DNA of 64,000 nt from Sphyrna mokarran (taxonomy: Eukaryota): assembly GCA_024679065.1 (NCBI GenBank), contig JAGIQG010000013.1, positions 35,154,001 through 35,218,000 on the forward strand. The letters run 5' to 3'. A model generated the notes under the pieces. The model saw nothing but the letters and a program-made list of their open reading frames with translations, was not told the DNA's origin and made no database searches. Of the stretch, positions 4,067 through 63,477 are shown in pieces (the stretch's first letter is position 1; each line of letters begins with the position of its first letter). A program made the position numbers and the translations under genes.

Positions 4067-4145
4067 CTGGGGAAAAAAACAAACTACCAGTTATTGCAGA
4101 TCACATAACTATTAGTGTAAACCTCATTATCAGGAGACAACAATA

Positions 4146-4341
4146 AAAGCAAATTATTGTGGATGCTGGAATCTGAAACCAAGCGAGAAAATGCTGGAAA
4201 ATCTCAAAGAGGTCTGGCAGCATTTGTCATAGACAACTCAACTGGCTTTGACAAAAGGTCAACTGGACTCAAAACACCAGCTCTTTTCTCTCCTTACAGA
4301 TGCTGCCAGACCTCCTGAGATTTTCCAGTATTTTCTCTTTT
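4146..4341. mobile_element. Palindromic pLTR-like element, second Penelope family, degenerate hammerhead
   Basis: Arms gagaaaatgctggaaaatctca...ggtctggcagcat and atgctgccagacc...tgagattttccagtattttctc, with internal tgacaaaaggtc-aactg-gactcaaaac. Confidence 0.7.
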
Positions 4342-4469
4342 GAGAACATTAACAATATGCCCAAGATGAAAAATAATAAAAATTTACTAGATGAGGCATT
4401 ACAATTGGTCTCAGTCTCTCTGTAGTCGGGAATAAGTTGGAGATGAGGAAGGAAATCAGTTAAGGTTCT

Positions 4470-8370: not shown

Positions 8371-9150
8371 CAGAATGCCAGAGGATGTTATTTAAGAAGG
8401 TTGGCAAAAGAATCAAGAGTAACATGGTGAAAAATATCTTTGTACAGATAGCATTAGGATGTGGAATGTACTACCAGAAAATGTGATGGAGGCAAATTCA
8501 ATAAGGGCTTTCAAAACTGGATTGCTTAAGCACATACATGGTAAAGAGAAATGCTGGCTTTTGGGGAATGGGAGGGGAGAATAAAGGCAGGAACGTGTGG
8601 GGGTTAGCTGAGATGCTGGTGCAAAGAACTGGCAGAAACGTAGCAGGCTAAATAACTTCTTGTGCTGTAACCAGTCTGTGATGCTATCAGGTTTCTGGGA
8701 GAACTCATTGTTTTTTGGTCATTAATTAATGATATTATTAAACTAGAAAGAGTTCAGGAAAGATTTATTAGAATGCTACCAGGGATTGATGGCTCAAGTT
8801 ATAATGAGGTTGGACAGACTGGGACCTTTTTCTCTGGAGTGTAGAAGGGATGCTTTTATAGGAGTCTATAAAATAATGAGGGGCACAGATCAGCTAGATA
8901 GTCAATATCTTTTCTCAAAGGAACTAGTCTAAAACTAGAGGGCATAGATTTAAGGTGAGAGGGGAGAGATTCAAAAGTGTCCAGAGGGGCAATTCTTTCA
9001 CAAACACGGTGGAGAGTCTCTGGAACAAGCTGCCAGAGTTAGTCGTAGAGGCAGGTACAATTTTGTCTTTCAAAAAACATTTAGACAGTTAGATGGGTAA
9101 AATGGGTGTAGAGGAATATGGCCAAATACAGGCAATTGGGATTAGCTCAG

Positions 9151-10791
9151 TAAGAATCTGGCAACACCAATTTTAAATCCAACCGATTTATTTGATAGTA
9201 AACCTGCAAGCTTTTGGCCTTTGTAGCCTTCGTCAGGTGAATGAGATGTTCTGGTCTCCAAAAGCACACATATCAGCACAGACAGTTTACAGATTGCTGA
9301 TTAGAATGCGAACCCTTACATCTAACCTGCTATTCAAGTCTTAAAGTGGCTAACAATGTGGGTGGGAGGAATATTGAGCACAGGTTAGGGGGATGTGTAT
9401 CGTCTCCAGACAGCACAGTAAGTGAGGTTTTTTTGCTAACCCAGGCAAGTCATGGGGGTTACAGACAGTGTGACATGAAGCCAAGATCCCTGTTAAGACC
9501 GTCCTCATGTGTGCGGAACTTGGCTATCAGTCTCTGCTCAGCGACTCTGCGCTGTCGTGAAGGCCCACTTGAAGAACATTTACCCGAAGGTCGGAGGCTG
9601 AATGTCCGTAACTGCTGAAGTGTTCACCCACAGGAAGGGAACTGTTTTGCCTGGTGATTGTTGAGCGATGTTCATTCATCCACTGTCGTAGTGTCTGCAT
9701 GGTCTCCCCAATGTACCATGCTTCGGGACATCCTTTCTTGCAACGTAAAGGTAGACAACGTTGGCCGAGTTGCAAGAGTATGTACCGTGTACCTGGTGAA
9801 TGGTATTCTCACGTTTGATGATGTTGTCCATGTCAATGATCCGGCATGTCTTGCAGAGGTTGCTGTGGCAGGGTTGTGTGGTATTGTGGTCACTGTTCTC
9901 CTGAAGGTTGGGTAGTTTGCTGCTAACAATGATCTGTTTGAGGTTGCGCGGTTGTCTGAAAGCAAGAAGTGGGGGGGTGGGGATGGCCCTAGCAAAATGT
10001 TCATCATCATCAATACGTTGAAGACTCTGGAGAAGATGTAGTAGCTTCTCCGCTCCAGGGAAGTACTGGACAACAAAGGGTACTCTGTCCACCATATCCC
10101 GTGTTTGTCTTCTGAGGTGGTCAGTGCGGTTTATCGCTGTGGCACACCGGAACTGTCGAACAATGTGTCGAGCGCCATATCCTGTTCTCACGAGGGCGTC
10201 TGGAGGTGTCTGTCACGATCCTCCTCATCTGAGCAAATTCTGTGTATACGGAGGGCTCGTCCATAAGAAATGGCTTCTTTAACGTGTCTAGGGTGGAAGC
10301 TGGAGAAGTGGAGCATTGTGAGGTTGTCTGTCGGTTTGTGGTACAGTGAGGTGCTGAAGTGTCCGTCCTTGATGGAGATGCGTGTGTCCAAGAATGCAAC
10401 TGATTCTGGAGAATGATTCTGATGAGTCTGATGGTGGGATGGAACTTGTTGATATCATCAAACAGTTTTTTCACCATGAGTCCAAAGGAAAAAAATGTCA
10501 TCAATCTAGTATATAGCCTTGGTTGAAGATCCCGTGTGGTGAAGAAGTCTTGTTCGAACCTGTGCATGAAGATGTTGGCATATTGAGGATTTGCATTCTA
10601 ATCAGCAATCTGTAAACTGTCTGTGCTGATACATGCGCTTTTGGAGACCAGAACATCTCATTCGCCTGATGAAGACTACAAAGGCCGAAAGCTTGCAGAA
10701 TCAAATAAATCGGTTGGATTTAAAATTGGTGTTGCCAGATTCTTACTGAGTTTACCCCAGTCCAACACCGGCATCTCTACATCATGACTAT
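9151..10791 (-). mobile_element. 5'-truncated Penelope-like retroelement (RT C-terminus, Cys-rich linker, GIY-YIG; Neptune-like) with inverted pseudo-LTRs
   Basis: Frameshifted ORF pieces QYANIFMHRFEQ, DDINKFHPTIRL, TSLYHKPTD...SSFHP, PCHSNLCKTC and NVVYL...YIGET...MNEH. About 170-bp inverted repeats at ~9146-9317 and ~10580-10750. A 17-bp direct repeat AATTGGGATTAGCTCAG at 9134-9150 and 10792-10808 splits a host CR1. Confidence 0.92.
10662..10698 (+). ncRNA. Hammerhead motif in the inverted pLTR of the Penelope element (partly degenerate)
   Basis: CTGATGA at 10666-10672 followed by GAAAGCTT at 10687-10694. Stem II and helix I are imperfect. Confidence 0.5.
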
Positions 10792-11770
10792 AATTGGGAT
10801 TAGCTCAGGGATTTAAAAAAAGAGCAGCATGGACAAGTTGGGCTGAAGAGCGTATTTCCACGCTGTAAACCTTTATGACTGGAGTGGGAAATCAGCAGGA
10901 TAAGTGATCTTCAAAATTTAATGAGAACATTTGAAGTGATGATTTGCAGTTTGGCACATTTTGTAACAGTGAAATGGGTCTGTGCGAATATAATCTCTCC
11001 CCTGTGGTTTTGAAGTTAAAAAGGGAAGTGGTCTCAGAATCATACAGCGCAGAAGAGGCCCTTCGGCCCATTGGATCTGCACCAAAACATTACAAACACC
11101 TAAATTCCTACCTTTGGTAACTCCAGTTTCCCCTCAGTTCAAAAATACATAGATCATCTTGACTGGCTATGTTAAATTGACCCTGTCATAGGTATTAGCA
11201 GGATAAGTATGAGAGAGATCAGGGGGAATAGGGCTTAGATTGTTGTCAGTGTAAGCTCCCTAGGCTAAAAAGCCTCGTTCGGCACTGTAGTGATTCTATG
11301 ATGAGGTGGAGTTCAGGTGTTTCTAATCTGTCTCAGTCGGCCCAGGCCCCTCACCCCCAACCAGGGGGTAGTGGCCTCAGTGCCTCCCCCACATCAAGTG
11401 AAACAATGCCCTATCCAACTTCTGGTCTCTCTCTCTCCTTCCACCCCCATCCCCCACCCCTCTTCCGGGCTCTGGTCTCTCTCTCCCCTTCTCCAAGGTC
11501 TGATCGCTCCCTCCTTCTCCCCTGCCCATCTTCCGGTCTCTCCCCCGTTCCGACCTCACGTCTCTGGCCATCACTGTACCACGTGCGCCGGAGCCGGTCA
11601 TTCTGCACCCTGATGGGACTAAACCTCCAGCTGCTCCTGATTAGTCACTCCATCCACCAATTAAATAATTCAGGGCCGGCAATCCGGTTCCAACTTCCGG
11701 TGGAATAGACTCCGCTATCTCTCCGCTCATACACACACACAGTCGGGCTGTGGTGGATATTTAAACATAC

Positions 11771-11798
11771 CGTGTTCTTCACACAGCACCCTCTCCAT
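11771..11798 (-). CDS. TTF2: TTF2 coding exon 1 (MERVLCEEH-G, phase 1)
   Basis: Minus strand reads ATG GAG AGG GTG CTG TGT GAA GAA CAC G|gtatgt. This 28-nt exon matches the TTF2 N-terminus (human MEEVRCPEHG), lies in a CpG-rich promoter region and splices in frame to exon 2. Confidence 0.93.
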
Positions 11799-12000
11799 TC
11801 CGCTCCGCGAGTCAACGCCGCGACCTTAGCCCCGCCCACAAAGGTCACGTGATTCCGGCTGCCAATCAGGCGCCGTCCGCCTCAGCTGCATCCGGGATCA
11901 GAATTTAAAATTTCTGACGGTTAACGGCCACGGGCAGGAGCCAATTAGAATGCGGGACGGTCAGTGGGCGGGGTTTAAAGCCCCACCTCCTCCCTCTCCC
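11799..12000 (-). promoter_or_regulatory. TTF2: TTF2 promoter / 5' UTR, CpG-island-like
   Basis: Locally CpG-rich. Contains E-box GTCACGTGA (~11844), CCAAT boxes (~11862, ~11941), GC box GGGCGGGG (~11966) and TTTAAA motifs (~11904, ~11974), directly upstream of the ATG. Confidence 0.75.
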
Positions 12001-12046
12001 TCTCTTTCTGAGTGAGAGAAATTGGACTCTGGTCATCAGAACTAGA

Positions 12047-12158
12047 TGTAGAGATACTGCATTGGACTGGAGTAAGAACAGAAAGAAGTCTCACAACACA
12101 GCTTAAAGTCCATAAATAAATCTGTCGGATTTTAAACTAGTGTTGTGAGACTTCTTTC
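12047..12158. mobile_element. Very short palindromic Penelope pLTR derivative with 13-bp target-site duplication
   Basis: Arms aagaagtctcacaacac and gtgttgtgagacttctt. CATCAGAACTAGA is repeated at 12034-12046 and 12159-12171. Same pLTR end as the 9.1-10.8 kb element. Confidence 0.8.
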
Positions 12159-12272
12159 CATCAGAACTAGAAACATCCTTCTGGCTAAGAACAAGCGTGA
12201 GCTCAGGTGTAATGCCTGTTTTTGTCCAGTTTGGATCTTTGCATTTGATTTATTATTGCCACACCAGTTAGT

Positions 12273-12574
12273 AGGGCAGCACGGTGGTTAGCACTGTTGA
12301 TTCACTGCACCCAGGACCTGGATTCAATTCCTGGCTTGGGTCACTGTCTATGTGGAGTTTGCACATTATCCCCGTGTTTCCTCTGGGTGTTCTGGTTTCC
12401 TCCCAAAGATGTCCGGCTAGGTGAATTGGCCATCATAAATTGACTCCTAGTATCAGGGGGCTAGCTAGGGTAAATGTGTGGGGCTCCGGGGCTAGTGCTT
12501 GCGTGGGATTGCGGTTGGTGCAGTCTTGATGGGCTGAATGGCCTCCTTCTGCACTGTAGCGTTTCTATGATTCT
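12273..12574 (+). mobile_element. HE1-like V-SINE, CR1-type tail
   Basis: gggcagcacggtggttagcactg head through gatgggctgaatggcctccttctgcactgt...ctatgattct tail. Confidence 0.88.
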
Positions 12575-12617
12575 CGCATACAGTGAAAAGTATTGTTTCA
12601 TGCACTATATAGAGAAG

Positions 12618-12857
12618 TCATGATGTAGAGATACCGGCATTGGACTGGGGTAAACACAGTAAGAAATCTGACGAAACCAGGTTTAGGTCCAACCAATTTA
12701 TTTGATAGTAAACTCACAAGCTTTCGAGGTTGTCCTCTTTGTCAGGTGAATGTGGTGTTCCTCATTCACCTGACGAAGAGGACAGCCTCGAAAGCTTGTG
12801 AGTTTACTATCAAATAAATCAGTTGGACCTAAACCTGGTGTTGTCAGACTTCTTACT
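12618..12857. mobile_element. Palindromic non-coding Penelope pLTR element with hammerhead motifs
   Basis: About 95-bp inverted arms centred near 12757, plus a ~40-bp one-sided tail. TSD ACTA(T/C)ATAGAGAAG at 12604-12617 and 12855-12868. Inserted in a Rex1-like LINE. Confidence 0.88.
12766..12801 (+). ncRNA. Minimal type I hammerhead ribozyme motif (Penelope-associated)
   Basis: TCAC-CTGACGA-A-GAGG(ACAG)CCTC-GAAA-GC-TT-GTGA: helix I TCAC/GTGA, intact core, 4-bp stem II, palindromic AGCT in place of helix III. Confidence 0.75.
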
Positions 12858-14892
12858 ACATAGAGAAGGCATAGCGTGCATAGAGAAGGAAAAGAGAGGG
12901 TGCAGAATGTTGTGTTATCGTCAGCTAATGTGTAGAGAAAGATCAACTGAATGATGCATTCAAAAGTGTGACAGTAGCAGGGAAGAAGCTGTTCTTGAAT
13001 CAGTTCATACATGTCCTCAGACCATTTATCTTTTTCCTGACAAAAGAAGATGGAAGAGACGATGTCCAGGTTGCATGGGGTTCTTAATTATGCTGGCTGC
13101 TTTTTTGAAGCAGTGGGAAGAGTAGACAGTGTCAGTAGGTATGAAGCTGTTTTGTATGATTGTGTGGGCTTTGTTCACAACTCTTTGCAGTTCCTTGTCA
13201 TCTTGGTCAGAGCAGTGATACAACCAACAAGAATGCTTTCTGTGGTGCAAGTGTAAAAACTGGTGAGCATCATAGCAGACATGCTGAATTTCCTTAGCCC
13301 TCTTGAGGAGGTGTTGATGGATTTTATTAAATACAGCATCAGTGTGGAGGGACCAGGTTGTTGGTGATCTGGATACCTGGAAACTTGAAGCTGTCAACTA
13401 TTTCCCATTGTTGTGGACAGGAAAATATCTTCCATTACGCTTCCTGAATGACAATCTCCGTTGTTTTACTGATATTGAGGGAGAAATTATTGTCATCACA
13501 ACATTTCACTAGATTCTCTATCTCTTTACTATTCTCCATCTTGGCGTTGTTTGAGTTCTGACCCCTACAGTAGCGTCATCAGCAAACTTGAAAATGGAGG
13601 GGAATTTGGCCACACAGTTATAAGTGTATATGGACTATAGTAAGAGGCTGAGGACACAGTCATTGATTGAGTTGTATTTATTAACTATATTCTCAAGTTA
13701 AATGACTGAGAATGATTTCTATCGTATATCATAGCTATGAGACAGGGGCCAATTTTCCTGGATTATCAATAAGTATCTTGGGTTATTGTAGTTTCCTCTT
13801 TACCTCTATTTTACAAATTTCTTTAGTACATCATCTCCAACAAGGAAGAATTTATTTCGTATCTGTCATGACCTTCAAACATTTCAAGGTGTTTTACAAT
13901 TAAAGTACAGTCACTGTTGTACTAAATGCAACAGCTAATTTGCACACAAATCTCCCACAAACAATGTAATAAACAGCAGATAAATAGTGATTACATACAT
14001 CTCATCTGAATGGCAGCTCCACCAACATTGCAGCACTCCCGCCCCATGCTGAATTAATGTCAGCTGTGGATTTTGTGTCCATCCTGAATGGGTCTACAAC
14101 TTTCTGACTGAAAGACAAGAGTTTTACCAACTGAGCCATGACTGACAGGACAAATGTATTGACACCATATTGGTGTCGTCGCAAGAAGCAATCTGAAATA
14201 AAATCACTTCATTTGTAAGCTTCCTGCAATATCACATCAATCTGAATTTGCATACTTTATACCAAACCATACTCTCCTTGGATTTCAATTTTTCATTTGT
14301 TTGACCAATACAAAATTTGGTATCCAATTACTTTCTATTTTGGTTAACCTCTTTTTGGGTTTAAGTAGGAACATGTTCCATACATGCTAAAGTAATGTAA
14401 TTAATGGAGATCAGTTCTTAGTTTTTACTGTTCTGGTCTAAAATTCCATCCATCTAATCGTTTCTGTAAACCATTCCTTTATAATATGTTCATTGTCTTA
14501 TCATGTTCCCACAATTTCTTTATGTCACTTCATCTGATTTATTGCCAAATTGCATTTAGTGAAACCATGCCATTTTTTTCAGCAGCCCAGGATAAAATTG
14601 TAACTTACTATCACATAAAACAAAGGCAAAGTTGCAAAAGGAAGACTTAAAGAGGATAACGTCCAAGTTGCAAATCATTATCCATCTATTATTTGGTCCT
14701 TTTCTTTGTCTCAGGCACTACACTGATTCAACTTTATTTTTTGTTTTGTTAACAAGGGCTATTTTTTTTTCTTTAACATAAGTCTGCAGTTCAGCTAACT
14801 ACAACAATTGTTGAATCCTAAATTATTCACTTTCATTTTTTTCCCAGAAATGTTAAAGTTCCGGGTGCAGCATAACGTCAGAGAAATATCAG

Positions 14893-15228
14893 TTTAAGGT
14901 TTATTTATTAGTGTCATAAGTAGGCTTGCATTCACACTGCAATGAAGTTACTGTGTAAAGCCACTGGTCACCACACTCCGGCACCTGTTCGGATACACTG
15001 AGGGAGAATTTAGCATGGCCAATGCACCCAACCGGCATGTTTCTCGGACTATGGGAAGAAATTGGAGCACCCAGGGGAAACCCATGCAGACATGGAGAAA
15101 ATATGCAGACTCTGTACCAGTGTATCAAGCTGGGAATTGAACTCAGGTCCCTGGCATTCTGAGGCAGCAGTGCTAACCACTGCTTAGCACTGTACCGCCC
15201 TGCTAACCACTATGCCACCGTGCCGCCT
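14893..15228 (-). mobile_element. V-SINE, alternative tail (gcctacttatgacactaataaataaac)
   Basis: Same head and core as HE1, different 3' tail. Confidence 0.85.
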
Positions 15229-26131: not shown

Positions 26132-26433
26132 AGTCGTGATGTGAAGATGTCAGTGTTGGACGGGGGTAAACACAGTAAGAAGTCTCACAAGACCAGGTTA
26201 AAGTCCAACAGGTTTATTTGATGGCAAAAGTTACTAACTTTCAGGGCTCTGCTCCTTCACCAGGTGAGTGGGGAGTTCTGATCACAAACAGAGCATATAA
26301 AGACATATGGCCTCTTTGTCATCAGAACTCCCCACTCACCTGATGAAGGGGCAGAGTCCCGAAAGTTAGTAACTTCTGCTACCAAATAAACCTGTTGGAC
26401 TTTAACCTGATGTTGTGAGACTTCTTACTGTGT
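26132..26433. mobile_element. Palindromic non-coding Penelope pLTR element with hammerhead motifs
   Basis: Inverted arms cacagtaagaagtctcacaa...gttctgat and atcagaac...ttgtgagacttcttactgtg around a centre near 26300, with a one-sided tail gatgtgaagatg...gggggtaaa. Confidence 0.88.
26336..26372 (+). ncRNA. Minimal hammerhead ribozyme motif
   Basis: TCAC-CTGATGA-A-GGGGC(AGA)GTCCC-GAAA-GT-TA-GTAA. The core is intact; the helix-III palindrome and helix I each carry one change. Confidence 0.65.
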
Positions 26434-44369: not shown

Positions 44370-44829
44370 AACACAATGAAATTTTCTATTCTATTTTATT
44401 TTATTTTTTCCTATTTTCTATCTTTTATTTCTTTATTGTTTTCTTTTTCCCATTCTTTTCCTCTATTTTATCCCCCTTTTCTTACCTTTTCTCCCCCTTT
44501 GCTTCTCCTTTTTTAAATTTTACTCTGGCCCATCCATTTGCCTCCCCCCCAACCCACTCCCCACACCTTCATCTGTCACTCTCATTTTAGCTTCTCTGCC
44601 GTGGGTCATTCACATCCTTTATTCTGTCTATGGCAGCTATTAGCAGTATTTTCCCTGGGTTCCAGGGCCATGGCTCATCTTTTATTTCCTTCCCTGCAAT
44701 ATAAATATCTCCCATTTTCTATGCCTTTTAGCTTTGACAAAGGGTCATCTCGGCTCAAAACATCAGCTCTTTTCTTTCCCTTCAAATGCTGCCAGACCTG
44801 CTGAGATTTTCCTGCATTCTCCCTTTTAG
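44370..44829 (+). mobile_element. Penelope-like 3' end / pLTR (second family) with pyrimidine-rich region
   Basis: Ends with tgacaaagggtcatctcggctcaaaac...atgctgccagacctgctgagattttcc, the same pLTR as 4146-4341. Confidence 0.65.
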
Positions 44830-45345
44830 TAACACAATGACAGCATCATCTCTTGAAAGGTATAATTTGAATCCTGCTTTGTGTACTCCAAGGTCTCTGG
44901 GGATTACTGTGATAGATCTGTACTGTATTTAACATCACTGCTGGGAATATTCTAGATATTTTGTGTTGAAATGTTTAGGTAAGTTATCCACCTATGCATC
45001 TTTTCTTTCTGCCAATGTTTTGAGCTTGTTGCAATAGAACTTCTGCATGGAAAATCTTTATGACACATTATAGATTTTAATATCAAATCCCCATGGATTT
45101 TCATATCAAGAAATATGGAAGCGAGAGAACCTATCCAGCATCAGGCAGCGCAGTAAATGCAATATTAACATACTTTAATATTGCTTTCAATCTAAGAAAA
45201 ACATAGGCATTGTTTGGGTGTATTTTACCTCAGAGATGTGAACAGGGCAGTGAAGGTGAATCTGGTATATGACTTTAGATATGTTAGAATTGGCTCATTG
45301 ATTATGCTATTGCTTCTGAGCTAGAAGGTTCAAGACCCAGCCCAG

Positions 45346-45685
45346 TATTCCCAGCAATGATTTTAAATACAGTACAGATCTACCACAATATTCCCCAGAT
45401 ATCTTTGGGTACACAGAGCAGGATTCAAATGATACCTTTCATGAGGCAATGCTGTCATTGTGTTACCAAAAGGAAAAATGCTGGAAAATCTCAGCAGGTC
45501 TGGCAGCATCTGTAAGAAGAGGAAAGAGCCGACGTTTCGAGTCCAAATGACCCTTTGACAAAACTAAAAGGCACAGAAAGTGGGAGATATTTATACTGCA
45601 GGGGGAGGGAATGAAAGATGAATCATAGCCACAGAAACCAAGGGAAAAGGCTGTTAATGGCTGTCCACAGAGAGAACACAAATAT
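45346..45685 (-). repeat. Inverted duplicate of ~44618-44951 (pLTR plus ~120 bp of flank)
   Basis: The reverse complement aligns along its whole length to 44618-44951, e.g. taacacaatgacagcat versus atgctgtcattgtgtta, and gatctgtactgtattta versus taaatacagtacagatc. Confidence 0.85.
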
Positions 45686-45854: not shown

Positions 45855-46090
45855 GGTCAAAATCTGAAAATGCTGGAAAATGTCAGCAGATCTGACTGTG
45901 TGTGTGGAGAGAGAATAGAGTTGACATTTTGAGTCTGCTCAATCCTTCATCAGAGCTGGTGTGACAAAGGGTCATCCAGACCTGAAACATTGGCTCTGTT
46001 CTCTCCCCACAGATGCAATCAGGCCGGCTGAGATTTTCCAATATTTCCTGTTTTTGTTTCAGATTCCAGCATCTGCAATAACTTGCTATT
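45855..46090. mobile_element. Palindromic pLTR-like element, second Penelope family
   Basis: Inverted arms around ~45958. The minus strand has ctgatgaagg...gactcaaaa and the plus strand has tgacaaagggtc-atcca-gacctgaaac. Confidence 0.7.
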
Positions 46091-46130
46091 ATCCGATCAA
46101 AACCTGGCCACCTCCATGAAGTATTCATGA

Positions 46131-46440
46131 AGCGGCACAGTGGTTGGCACTGCTGCCTCACAGTGCCAGGGACCTGGGTCCAATTCTGGCCTCGGGTCAC
46201 TGACTGTGTGGAGTTTGTACATTCTCTCTGTGTCTGCATGAGTTTTCTCCGGGTGCTCTGGTTTTCTCCCACAGACAAAAGATGTGCAGTTTAGATTAAT
46301 TGGCCATGCTAAATTGACTCTTAGTGTCAGGGGGATTAGTAAAGTCAATATGTGGGGTTATGGGAATAGGGCCTAGGTGGGATTGTGGTTGATGCAGATT
46401 CAATGGACCAAATAGCCTCCTTCTGCAATACAGGGAATTC
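46131..46440 (+). mobile_element. HE1-like V-SINE, CR1-type tail
   Basis: gcggcacagtggttggcactgctgcctcacag head plus full core and tail. Confidence 0.88.
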
Positions 46441-60000: not shown

Positions 60001-61035
60001 AGTTTAATTTAGAGTTTCCACTGTCCATTGGGTCTACGAGTCAGGCCATTAGGCCATCTGGCCACATGGTGGCTGCTGTCAAAGCAAGAGTGACAATGGC
60101 ACTTGTTCTGAACAGAAGATGTCAGAGCCCATAAAGCACCAGAAAGAGTTGATATTCAACATTTTCAATTCGGTGAAACATCCAAATTGATTTTGATTAT
60201 GGCACAGCTGGAGACAGAAAATCATGATTGTTGTAATAATTGCAGACCAGATAATTATCTTTCACAACAGATGGACCTATGGGGAGCTTGTGCTGAAACT
60301 GCAAGGAAGTTTTGTCAGCAAAGAGCTCAGCAGCTTTGCTTTTTCTGTGTATACTTAGTTCTTTGTAACACTAATGTCACACACTATGCTTTAGCTATTG
60401 GTTTGCTGTGGTTGGTTTGCTTTTGGACAGGAAGTAGTTAAGAAACACATAAAATAGAGATGATAGTGCACTTACCTTGGGCACTGAATCATTCAACGGA
60501 GCCAGTCAGCAAAATGTCAAACAAATCAAAAGTGGCAAGTGCTTACATCAGTTCCACCTCCTTGTTTATAACCATGAAAATGGCAGCCAATACTAGGGTT
60601 CAAATACAAAATTTTTTGCATATCACAAATGCACTTGTGCTGCAAATAATACTGACATGAAATCCTTCAGAGAATGTTAATAAATCAGACTTTAAACTAT
60701 AATTAGGTAGATCAGTTGTGTCAGGGAAGACAATCTGTAAAATATCACTCTCTCTTGATCCTGAGCTATAAAAGATGTTCAGGTGGCTGAAACTGGTCAC
60801 CACACATCGCAAAGTAATTAAACATACATTCAGACCCCACTCAGCCTGCTTTATCACCTCTTTTTAATTTCAGTACCACCCCTTGGCCAAGAAGAGTATT
60901 CTTCCAATATAGTTATCAAGACAAATATATGGTTTGTGTTTGGATTTACCCTCCTGTCCTGATAAGGAGGCACAACTGCACAAAAATGCTCTTTGTAAGC
61001 ATGCAAGGAGGAAAGGTTCATTCTATGCTTGAAAG

Positions 61036-61266
61036 CTAGTGTAGAGTCTGCACATTCTCCCCATGTCTGTGTGGGTTTCCTCTGGGTGCTCCAGTTTCCT
61101 CCCACACTCCAAATGTGCAGGTTAGGTAGACAGGCCATGCTAAATTGGCCCTTGGCATCAGGAGGATTAACAGGGTAAATAACGGAGTTACAGAGATAGG
61201 GATTGTTGTCGGTGCAGACTTGATGGGCCAAATGGCCTCCTACTTCACTGTGGGGGTTCTATGATT
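61036..61266 (+). mobile_element. 5'-truncated HE1-like V-SINE next to the Ig exon donor
   Basis: Core plus CR1-type tail ending ggggttctatgatt, about 17 bp from the exon end at 61284. Confidence 0.85.
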
Positions 61267-61283
61267 GAACATAGGTTTAGTAC

Positions 61284-61691
61284 CTGGACGCTGGACAGTG
61301 ACAGAGGTCAGTCCGGACACATTCTCTCCGACTTTATACCAGATGTTGTTGGGGTTGAGTAGCCATTCCTCCACGTGACAATAGTATTTCCCACTATCAG
61401 CAATATCAGCTTTCAGTAAGACCAAAGTGTAATGTCCGCTTAATGGTTTTGTGGCCTGCAGTCGCTCCTTTTTCTTGTCTCTTCTTAACCAGTCCTTATA
61501 CTCAACCACACCATCACGGTTTGATATCAGGATGAGTTTGTCTTCTTTCTCCGGTGATCTTTGAATGTACCATTGTACAGAGAACTGAGAGTCTGGTCTT
61601 GTTTGATTTGTGATGACACAGTCGAAATGAATGTTGTCATTTTCTTTTACTACAATGTTCCTCTTCATTTGCTTGACATTTAATCTACAAT
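61284..61691 (-). CDS. IGSF3: IGSF3-like EWI-family V-set Ig exon (third Ig exon before the TM exon)
   Basis: Acceptor tcttcacag| and donor |gtacta; 408 nt, phase 1-1. B-strand FDC, C-strand QWY and DSGKYYCHVEEWLLNPNNIWYK (EWI-type motif). Confidence 0.9.
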
Positions 61692-61842
61692 CTGTGAAGA
61701 AAAATAAAACTGGGTTACAATGGTGACTACAAAATAGAAACACATTTTATTACCATTTTCCTTATTTTTTTTCTTTCATTTTCTAGCGACCATAACGGCT
61801 CAGATTTTGCAGTGAGTTACCAAGAAAGTTTCTGATAAAGAG

Positions 61843-62130
61843 TTTTAAAGTTTATTTGTTAGTGTCACAAGTAGGTGTACATTAACACTGTAATGAAGTT
61901 GTTGTGAATATCCCCTAGTCGCCACATTCCTGCAACTAGGGTACACGGAGGGAGAATTTAGCATGGCCAATGTACTTAACCAACAGACTGAGAGAGGAAA
62001 CCAGAGCAGCCAGAAGAAACCTATGCAGACATGGGGAGAATGTGCAAACTCCACAGACAGTGACCCAAGGTGGGAATTGAACCTATGTCCATGGCGCTGT
62101 GAGGTAACAGTGCTAACTACTGTGCCACCA
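61843..62130 (-). mobile_element. V-SINE, alternative tail
   Basis: Reverse-complement head, core and tail. Confidence 0.85.
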
Positions 62131-63194
62131 TCAAGGTTGAGCAACTTGATATTAGTTTGAATTGCATACCAAGTCGAAGGGAATCTCTAGGTATACAGGA
62201 GCAGTGAGCCTATCAAACAGTGTAATCAGCCAAGCACATGAAATAGACACCGCAGCCAGCAAGCCAGGAAGTAAAATGCACTGATGGTTTTTTACTTTTT
62301 AATATCATTTTACAAAGGGCAAAATAAATCATTGATTCTAACATCTGGAATCACAGTAGAAGTTGAACTATCATAAACAAGGTTTTAGAAATTTAAAACT
62401 CTGGATTTTTAAAATAACACAATGGAAAAATCTGGCATTCTACATTTATAGCATTGGTTTATCGGGGCAGATAGATAGTTCAACAGTAAAAATGAACTCG
62501 TTCAAAAAGTGCAACTTTTTCAAGGATTTCTACAGCAAATGTAATTGTGTAAAAGGTCATGTTTTTGTTATTCTGTCACTTTTACTTATTTGCAGTTTCC
62601 ATCGGCATACGTTTTGGTCCATCAAAGAATTACTGATTGCAACAACAGATAGTGAAATCTGAATTCAAGAGAAATCCGTAATTGAAGGTCTATTGATATC
62701 CATGAAACCATTGTCAGTTGTCATAAAATCCCATCTAATTCATTCATTAATATCTTTAGGGAAGGAAATCTTCCATCTTTATCTGCTGTGGCCTACAAAT
62801 GACTTCTTGTTGACTCCTGATTCACAATGTGGTTGTCTCTTAAATGTTGTCTGAAATGAACTAGCAAGCCACTTAGTTCAAGGGTAATCAGGAATGTGCA
62901 ATAATTGCTCAAACATCCATATCCCAGTTATGAACAGAAGTAAATCAACTTCTAGATTTCTACATTTAACTATATCTGTGCAGATGCCAGAAGTTGATGT
63001 CAGTTTCAGAGAAATAATGATGGTGAATACTGACAGTTACACCATCATTACTATTACTATTGCAAGATCTAAGCCATCTTCCTCTCCTGCTGGAGTAAGC
63101 ACTTCTCCGTAATTTGTGCTGTGAAGCAATTTACTTTTAAGCAGGACACCAGAATGTGCAGATCCACACACATGGTGACTCAAGCCGGGAGTTG

Positions 63195-63477
63195 AATCCG
63201 GCGCCTCTCAGCGCTAGGGACCCTGGTTTGATTCCCAGCTTGGGTCAGTGTCTGTAGGGAGTCTGCATATTCTTCCTGTGTCTGCATGGGTTTCCTCTGG
63301 ATGCTCCGGTTTCCTCCTACGATCAGAAAGATGTGCTGGTTAATCACATTGGTCATGCTAAATTCTCCCTCAGTGTACCCCAACAGGCACCGGAGTATAA
63401 CGACTGGGGGATTCACAGTAACTTCATTGCAGTGTTAATGTAAGCATGTTTATGTCACCAATAAATACACTTTTAAA
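63195..63477 (+). mobile_element. V-SINE, alternative tail
   Basis: cgcctctcagcgctagggacc through cagtaacttcattgcagtgttaatgtaagc. Confidence 0.85.

Follow-up and report, generated by a model that had tools for sequence, protein, structure and literature searches.

A hammerhead-bearing palindrome in Sphyrna mokarran is a head-to-head Penelope-like insertion, and the ends of such insertions pile up near a predicted RNA start

The palindrome at 12604-12868 is a single insertion of an ordinary Penelope-like retrotransposon (PLE), with two short hammerhead-bearing ends placed head to head. Taken by itself, the locus is old and dead, and insertions of its type have already been described. The layout is known; what we add is that the pile-up of the ends and the coupling of the arms are counted, in two families. 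(Positions are those of the window, by which we mean the whole stretch of 64,000 nucleotides of Sphyrna mokarran DNA that we analysed.)

The palindrome, its hammerheads and its parent family

We assigned these features to the palindrome:

12604..12617, plus strand: left TSD, 14 bp, with 1 mismatch to the right copy
12616..12657, minus strand: Penelope "tail", about 42 nt, on arm A only, between two predicted RT start sites
12658..12759, minus strand: arm A, tail-bearing, 102 nt of pLTR end
12715..12750, minus strand: mirror hammerhead with a broken core (C3 with A8)
12760..12857, plus strand: arm B, tail-less, 98 nt of pLTR end
12762..12767, plus strand: initiator-like TCATTC, with the source RNA predicted to start at its A (12764)
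12764..12803, plus strand: intact minimal type I hammerhead with a palindromic helix III
12855..12868, plus strand: right TSD, which pairs with 12604-12617

TCATTC resembles the initiator consensus. The TATA-like box of longer copies is missing upstream in this element. Both arms (102 and 98 nt) sit within the cluster of arm ends of their family (family 1), which is described below. The tail is defined as a PLE feature in passages of PMC11167929 and PMC8557442.

The original prediction was a TSD-flanked hairpin of about 240 bp with a complete minimal hammerhead on each strand. The hairpin was borne out: besides the TSD, 12658-12755 and 12760-12857 are 92% complementary, and a strand of 12604-12868 folds at -167.5 kcal/mol (z = -23.8; in folding, none of 200 shuffles was equal). 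The sense hammerhead is complete as well. Its core is intact, C3 is 12770, helix I pairs 12764-12769 with 12798-12803, and the cut is predicted between 12797 and 12798. The mirror hammerhead is not complete, because C3 occurs together with A8: the core reads CUGACAA, and G8 is lost. Enforcing the hammerhead fold is predicted to cost 64 and 55 kcal/mol on the respective strands, and in these models the full hairpin is about 60 kcal/mol more stable than the ribozyme fold. Whichever strand is transcribed, the complement is transcribed ahead of the hammerhead. The element is likely a dead end: it carries no TATA box, and the hairpin is predicted to lock its ribozyme. An Rfam scan found no hammerhead family at E ≤ 5, and its matches to miRNA families reflect the hairpin alone.

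C3/G8 is the norm in family 1 (60 of 80 readable tail arms), and C3/A8, which is found in 17 of the 80, is what CpG decay gives. In a second family (family 2; L263-L352), 38 of 45 readable tail arms have U3/A8 and 5 have C3/G8. We considered decay as an explanation for the UUGACAA cores of family 2 and rejected it, as this is the U3-A8 variant described in passages of PMC4209133.

The minimal type I hammerhead is present in the pLTR, and, by eye, its stem II variants keep pairing across subfamilies. The exact 32-nt hammerhead motif of the palindrome occurs 183 times (control, 0), and among the first 30 of these 183 loci, 10 run on into a PLE ORF with RT and GIY-YIG. The Penelope origin and the hammerhead reading of the original prediction hold. 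L057, a relative of the copy at 9.1-10.8 kb, has a stop-free frame of 827 aa with an RT domain (RVT_1, E = 2e-9), a DKG motif, a CX4CxxC linker and, at the C-terminal end, a GIY-YIG endonuclease (E = 4e-4; the score of 21.2 is slightly under the curated cut-off of 22.6), which is the domain content of an EN+ PLE. According to passages of PMC8557442, a CX2-5CxxC linker upstream of GIY-YIG defines the Neptune and Nematis clades, so the linker of L057 points to Neptune or Nematis and the parent of family 1 would be Neptune-type. The long arms of family 2 match the family-1 PLE protein at 25-39% identity, and family 2 is also a PLE.

Other insertions in the window and their density

The window holds six more head-to-head or inverted insertions:

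4143..4342, no strand assigned: family-2 head-to-head insertion, whose tail-less arm starts 1 nt from the predicted start
9134..10808, minus strand: long head-to-head insertion of a sister subfamily, with a perfect 17-bp TSD and arms at 9137-10793
12034..12171, no strand assigned: very short family-1 head-to-head insertion, with arms at 12047-12158, a tail, a perfect 13-bp TSD and no hammerhead
26132..26433, no strand assigned: family-1 head-to-head insertion of another subfamily, with arms of about 125 and 123 nt
44604..45676, no strand assigned: family-2 insertion whose two inverted arms are long, at about 330 nt each
45866..46092, no strand assigned: family-2 head-to-head insertion, whose arms extend to 136 and 131 on the ruler of the family

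The coding family at 9.1-10.8 kb had been proposed to mobilise the palindromes. That copy is itself a broken head-to-head insertion and no demonstrated driver: it has a tail arm at 10586-10789 and a long arm with a broken C-terminal half of the RT and a GIY-YIG endonuclease, and it belongs to another subfamily (77% identical at the end). The stub at 12047-12158 has no hammerhead at all, so the ribozyme is not required for the head-to-head layout.

The palindrome's architecture had also been predicted to recur at 26 kb, 4.1 kb and 45.9 kb. The layout does recur at all three places, but the hammerheads are mostly damaged and the TSDs are weak. At 26132..26433, the mirror core reads CUGGUGA, which is broken, and the best TSD is unconvincing (8 bp with 1 mismatch). 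At 4143..4342, just one arm reaches the hammerhead, which has lost G12, and the TSD is weak (7 bp). At 45866..46092, the arms are about 67% alike, their core types differ, both cores are damaged, and the TSD is again weak (9 bp with 1 mismatch). In both of these family-2 stubs, one arm begins at the predicted start or 1 nt off.

Some other observations concern the surrounding sequence. The centre of the 26132..26433 insertion (26296-26310) falls on a TATA-like word, which is self-complementary and could favour joining. Family-1 tail ends (such as 12616-12624, minus strand) stop at ATG, possibly an ORF start. The region 11400-12000 is CpG-rich (19 CpG in 11801-12000), with CCAAT- and GC-box-like words, and is probably a host promoter. 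The insertions at 12047 and 12604 lie within about 0.7 kb of this putative promoter, so divergent transcription could read the hairpin. Otherwise, the inverted-repeat pairs are mostly dispersed repeats (for example at 12270-12580, 14900-15120, 46130-46400 and 61000-63400), which we take to be shark SINEs from their appearance.

In 464 kb around the window, we counted 22 head-to-head pairs (17 from family 1 and 5 from family 2), excluding the 44.6-kb pair and pairs that are split across 10-kb records. This corresponds to roughly 50 pairs per Mb in this one region; extrapolating from these 464 kb, the 2.77-Gb genome would contain about 10^5 pairs. The very high genome-wide load that the original prediction expected is supported, to the extent that one region can represent the genome.

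Centres, arm lengths and end positions

We sampled family-1 loci by their tails, which leaves the centre unbiased. For three tail patterns, we used 90 of 160, 30 of 78 and 30 of 67 exact matches, respectively. An opposite arm is adjacent in 108 of these 150 loci, with arms from 14 to over 1600 nt long, and several of the remaining 42 are simply truncated single copies, with a TSD where the arm ends. (One locus, L231, is a tail-only match and was omitted from later counts, so n drops from 108 to 107; L184 and L236, from a divergent subfamily, are probably mis-mapped and were kept.) A repeat of 7 bp or more, with a mode of 12-13, flanks 85 of the 108 pairs in a loose scan without a shuffle control.

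If the palindromes were a retrozyme-like non-autonomous family that is transcribed, self-cleaves and re-inserts as units, then independent amplification should show up as shared centres. The high copy number would fit such a family, as would the stereotyped size (both arms are 135 nt or less in 65 of 107 elements, with a median of 202 bp), the one intact core at 12604-12868, and a few shared centres. However, 107 of the 108 junctions are distinct, and the only one seen twice brings together two stem II subfamilies, at a microhomology of 3 nt. Among the 30 best matches, a set that is biased towards the palindrome's own centre, L001 and L002 share a centre, as do L006, L018 and L028. These same-centre pairs lie at percentiles 56, 61, 23 and 13 of the 435 pair distances, so copies with a common centre either belong to different subfamilies or are related no more closely than random pairs, and a variant on both arms of L001 is common to L006, which has another centre, and not to L002. 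Clustering by centre, which the original prediction had suggested, gives no independent amplification. Also, only 11 of the 108 pairs have both cores intact, and in 29 the two arms both stop short of the core's 5' end. The palindrome's own hammerhead subfamily includes coding members (the 10 of 30 loci above).

Passages of a study of non-LTR retrozymes (bioRxiv 10.64898/2026.07.22.740005) describe elements that are likewise non-coding and pLTR-derived with a type I hammerhead. Those are head-to-tail tandems with same-strand hammerheads, in families of like units, whereas the palindromes here are head-to-head, have at most one hammerhead per strand, and have unique centres; we found neither tandem same-strand units nor amplification as a unit. 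Because the centres are distinct, same-centre copies are unrelated, the hairpin is predicted to block the hammerhead fold, and the units are not tandem on the same strand, a retrozyme-like system is unsupported, and we consider it very improbable.

The two arms of a family-1 pair tend to have similar lengths (Spearman rho = 0.73, n = 108). In 72 of 108 pairs, the arms are within 40 nt of each other, while permutations give a mean of 31 (and a maximum of 45 in 10,000). The coupling extends to the 30 pairs with both arms over 150 nt, as 12 of these are within 45 nt (3.9 expected). The tail-less arm is the longer one in 66 of 108 pairs, with a median offset of +10 nt. Among the 30 long pairs, the offset is +20 to +45 in 8 (1.2 expected); this is near the length of the tail, as if both cDNAs had reached about equal total length and then stopped together. 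In family 2, the coupling is weak (rho = 0.36; 24 of 41 pairs are within 40 nt, versus 20.5 expected, p = 0.11), and the 41 head-to-head calls are a lower bound.

The ends of the arms are clustered as well. Among 107 family-1 elements, 25 have the end of their longer arm at d=92-104 and just 1 has it in the core region (72-91). The A of TCATTC is at d=94, and in longer copies a TATA-like word lies 30 nt upstream. The peak is broad (92-104), and we recognised the TATA-like word and the initiator after we had seen the pile-up. By eye, the ends seem stepped just below three CA dinucleotides (with A at d=94, 99 and 104), which would seem to be the pattern expected of dispersed start sites.

For family 2, we took 90 of 1441 tail matches in the order listed, from two contigs, and skipped two places that adjoined the previous one. 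In long copies, hammerhead helix I begins 30 nt below TATAAATA. Of the 90 tail arms, 28 end at 131-137. The single position 136, 30 nt below the first T of TATAAATA, accounts for 11 of the 90. Beyond the ends at 136, the sequence differs from locus to locus. (Four ends at 84-99 were subfamily artefacts and were relocated on remapping.) The windows for the binomial tests were chosen from the data in both families. The pile-up is also seen in arms without a detected partner. In the family-2 arms, inspection by eye found no non-templated base of the kind that copying a cap would leave. Judging by the motif spacing, the RNA of the element likely begins, in both families, at the pile-up just 5' of the hammerhead. 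The pile-up also coincides with the 5' edge of the hammerhead, so release of RT after this structure could contribute. Our search of the main texts of openly available papers did not find the end pile-up or the arm coupling reported.

Random 5' truncation of two cDNAs, with pausing or release of RT at the hammerhead helices and near-symmetry from later deletion at hairpin centres, does not fit these results: the arms are coupled and the ends are clustered. The alternative offered in the original prediction, repeated truncation, comes nearer to the data than self-amplification does, but the ends are non-random. Long palindromes are known to be unstable, the arm lengths do form a continuum, and a second cluster of ends (d=52-71) is near the bases of helices. 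However, the family-2 mode of 11 of 90 ends is at one base, 30 nt below the TATA box, and the offset between arms (both the median of +10 nt and the excess at +20 to +45) is directional, so it is not the product of symmetric later deletion. We therefore consider random truncation unlikely.

The short arms might instead be set by self-cleavage of the template RNA by the hammerhead in vivo. For family 2, 5 of 90 ends are at 98-101 (the cut is at 101), as compared to 1 in 91-97 and 2 in 102-108, and family 1 has a cluster at d=46-60, just below its cut between 60 and 61. But family 1 has as many ends at 65-71, and the cut site adjoins palindromic words that favour joining. Most templates were uncut, since the main peak of ends lies 30-35 nt upstream of the cut in both families. 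Cleavage by the hammerhead is also unnecessary in vitro, according to passages of PMC11167929. Self-cleavage is at most a minor route, and it is highly doubtful that it sets the arm lengths.

Formation of the insertions and known relatives

We think it probable that a Neptune-type PLE makes these head-to-head insertions by twin priming from both cut target strands, with run-off at the 5' end of the RNA. Transcription would start about 30 nt below the TATA-like box, at the first bases of the hammerhead (given the motif spacing and the end positions). Reverse transcription would start at two internal sites in the first repeat of the transcript, at the two ends of the tail; it would be primed from both target strands and would run off the RNA's 5' end. 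Because the RT start sites are only about 100-140 nt from the 5' end, both cDNAs would be short, with a stereotyped length, and in this would resemble the strong-stop DNA of retroviruses. The two cDNA ends would then be trimmed and fused by microhomology-type end-joining. Long copies would arise by priming in a downstream repeat instead. The short product, with its TATA box missing and its ribozyme predicted to be locked in the hairpin, would likely be a dead end. Run-off leaves the coupling among long arms unexplained.

Some of these steps are known in vitro. Passages of PMC11167929 report that the protein of PAc, from Anolis, cuts and extends both target strands and starts reverse transcription at two internal sites that flank the tail, as we predict here; a dimer is also predicted. 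PAc is from the Poseidon clade, and family 1 differs in having the Neptune/Nematis CX2-5CxxC linker. The main text on PAc does not address how inverted arms form.

Microhomology of 3 nt or more is found at 29 of the 55 junctions without inserts, versus 5% at random, and this count is somewhat inflated because it uses mismatch-tolerant alignments. The other junctions include 52 of the 108 with inserted letters, some of which repeat nearby arm sequence. Both arms have the same stem II variant in 25 of 37 pairs (13% by permutation), and the distance between partner arms is smaller than that to other loci (0.068 versus 0.093, n = 78). Two pairs join arms from two subfamilies: L207 from family 1, and probably 45866-46092 from family 2 (L121 and L164 are ambiguous). 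At one family-2 locus, L288, the arm end at 136 is followed by six letters that match the stretch immediately 5' of the hammerhead cut. A template jump from one AGCT word to the other would leave such a match; this is one case.

The inverted arm of the same PLE could instead arise when the cDNA, or an antisense template, primes itself or folds back and the endonuclease then trims one tail. The shared subfamilies, the closeness of partner arms and the common microhomology all agree with this, and coupled arm lengths would come naturally. On the other hand, nearly half of the junctions have inserted letters, pairs with arms from two subfamilies exist, and the ends track the sense-strand start site even where an arm has no detected partner. 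A simple fold-back of the tail-bearing cDNA cannot give a longer tail-less arm, which is what we see in 66 of 108 pairs. These longer tail-less arms are one reason why we prefer twin priming; the other is that two subfamilies are joined in L207 and probably in the 45.9-kb element. Fold-back with later trimming of the tail stays a rival because most pairs share a subfamily, and we consider it improbable without dismissing it.

With twin priming as the preferred route, the leader RNA may come from solo repeats, mobilised in trans, or from full-length elements. More tentatively, it could well be that the short palindromes, roughly 100,000 in number, each duplicate the whole 5' leader of the PLE transcript and are a Penelope counterpart of strong-stop DNA, made by a dimeric RT that primes on both strands. 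They would then map the transcript's start to the hammerhead's first base and record the origin of inverted pLTRs. Solo repeats that keep the TATA box could feed leaders in trans, which would be a promoter-shedding, non-autonomous route.

The original prediction had put the palindromes forward as an under-described system. In fact, this layout, a truncated copy in inverted orientation plus a tail on one side, is standard for PLEs and is already in print, in passages of PMC8557442, PMC3846280 and PMC2377424. Like Pen2a_Av (PMC3846280), the Penelope of D. virilis (PMC2377424) and the scheme in PMC8557442, the insertions here have a head-to-head, inverted, 5'-truncated copy and a one-sided tail (30-40 bp in those elements, and 42 nt here). 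They are also alike in their variable-length TSD, their palindromic junction, and the TATA and initiator-like motifs of the pLTR. The differences are that the arms here are about 100 nt and have no ORF, and that the pile-up and the coupling are quantified. In the passages that describe them, metazoan PLE hammerheads (Cervera and de la Pena 2014, PMC4209133) are also minimal type I with a palindromic helix III and a hypervariable helix II. Those passages report dual hammerheads, 100-700 bp apart on opposite strands; unlike here, the results and discussion do not analyse the opposite-strand pairs as insertion units.

How the tandem and inverted structures of PLEs originate is described as undefined in passages of PMC8557442, and antisense self-priming is proposed in part of PMC3846280. 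The population of insertions that we describe bears on this question: the end positions favour a sense template that is primed twice, and they predict the exact start of transcription in two families. At about 50 pairs per Mb, the palindromes may also be a large source of dsRNA, where host transcripts read through them.
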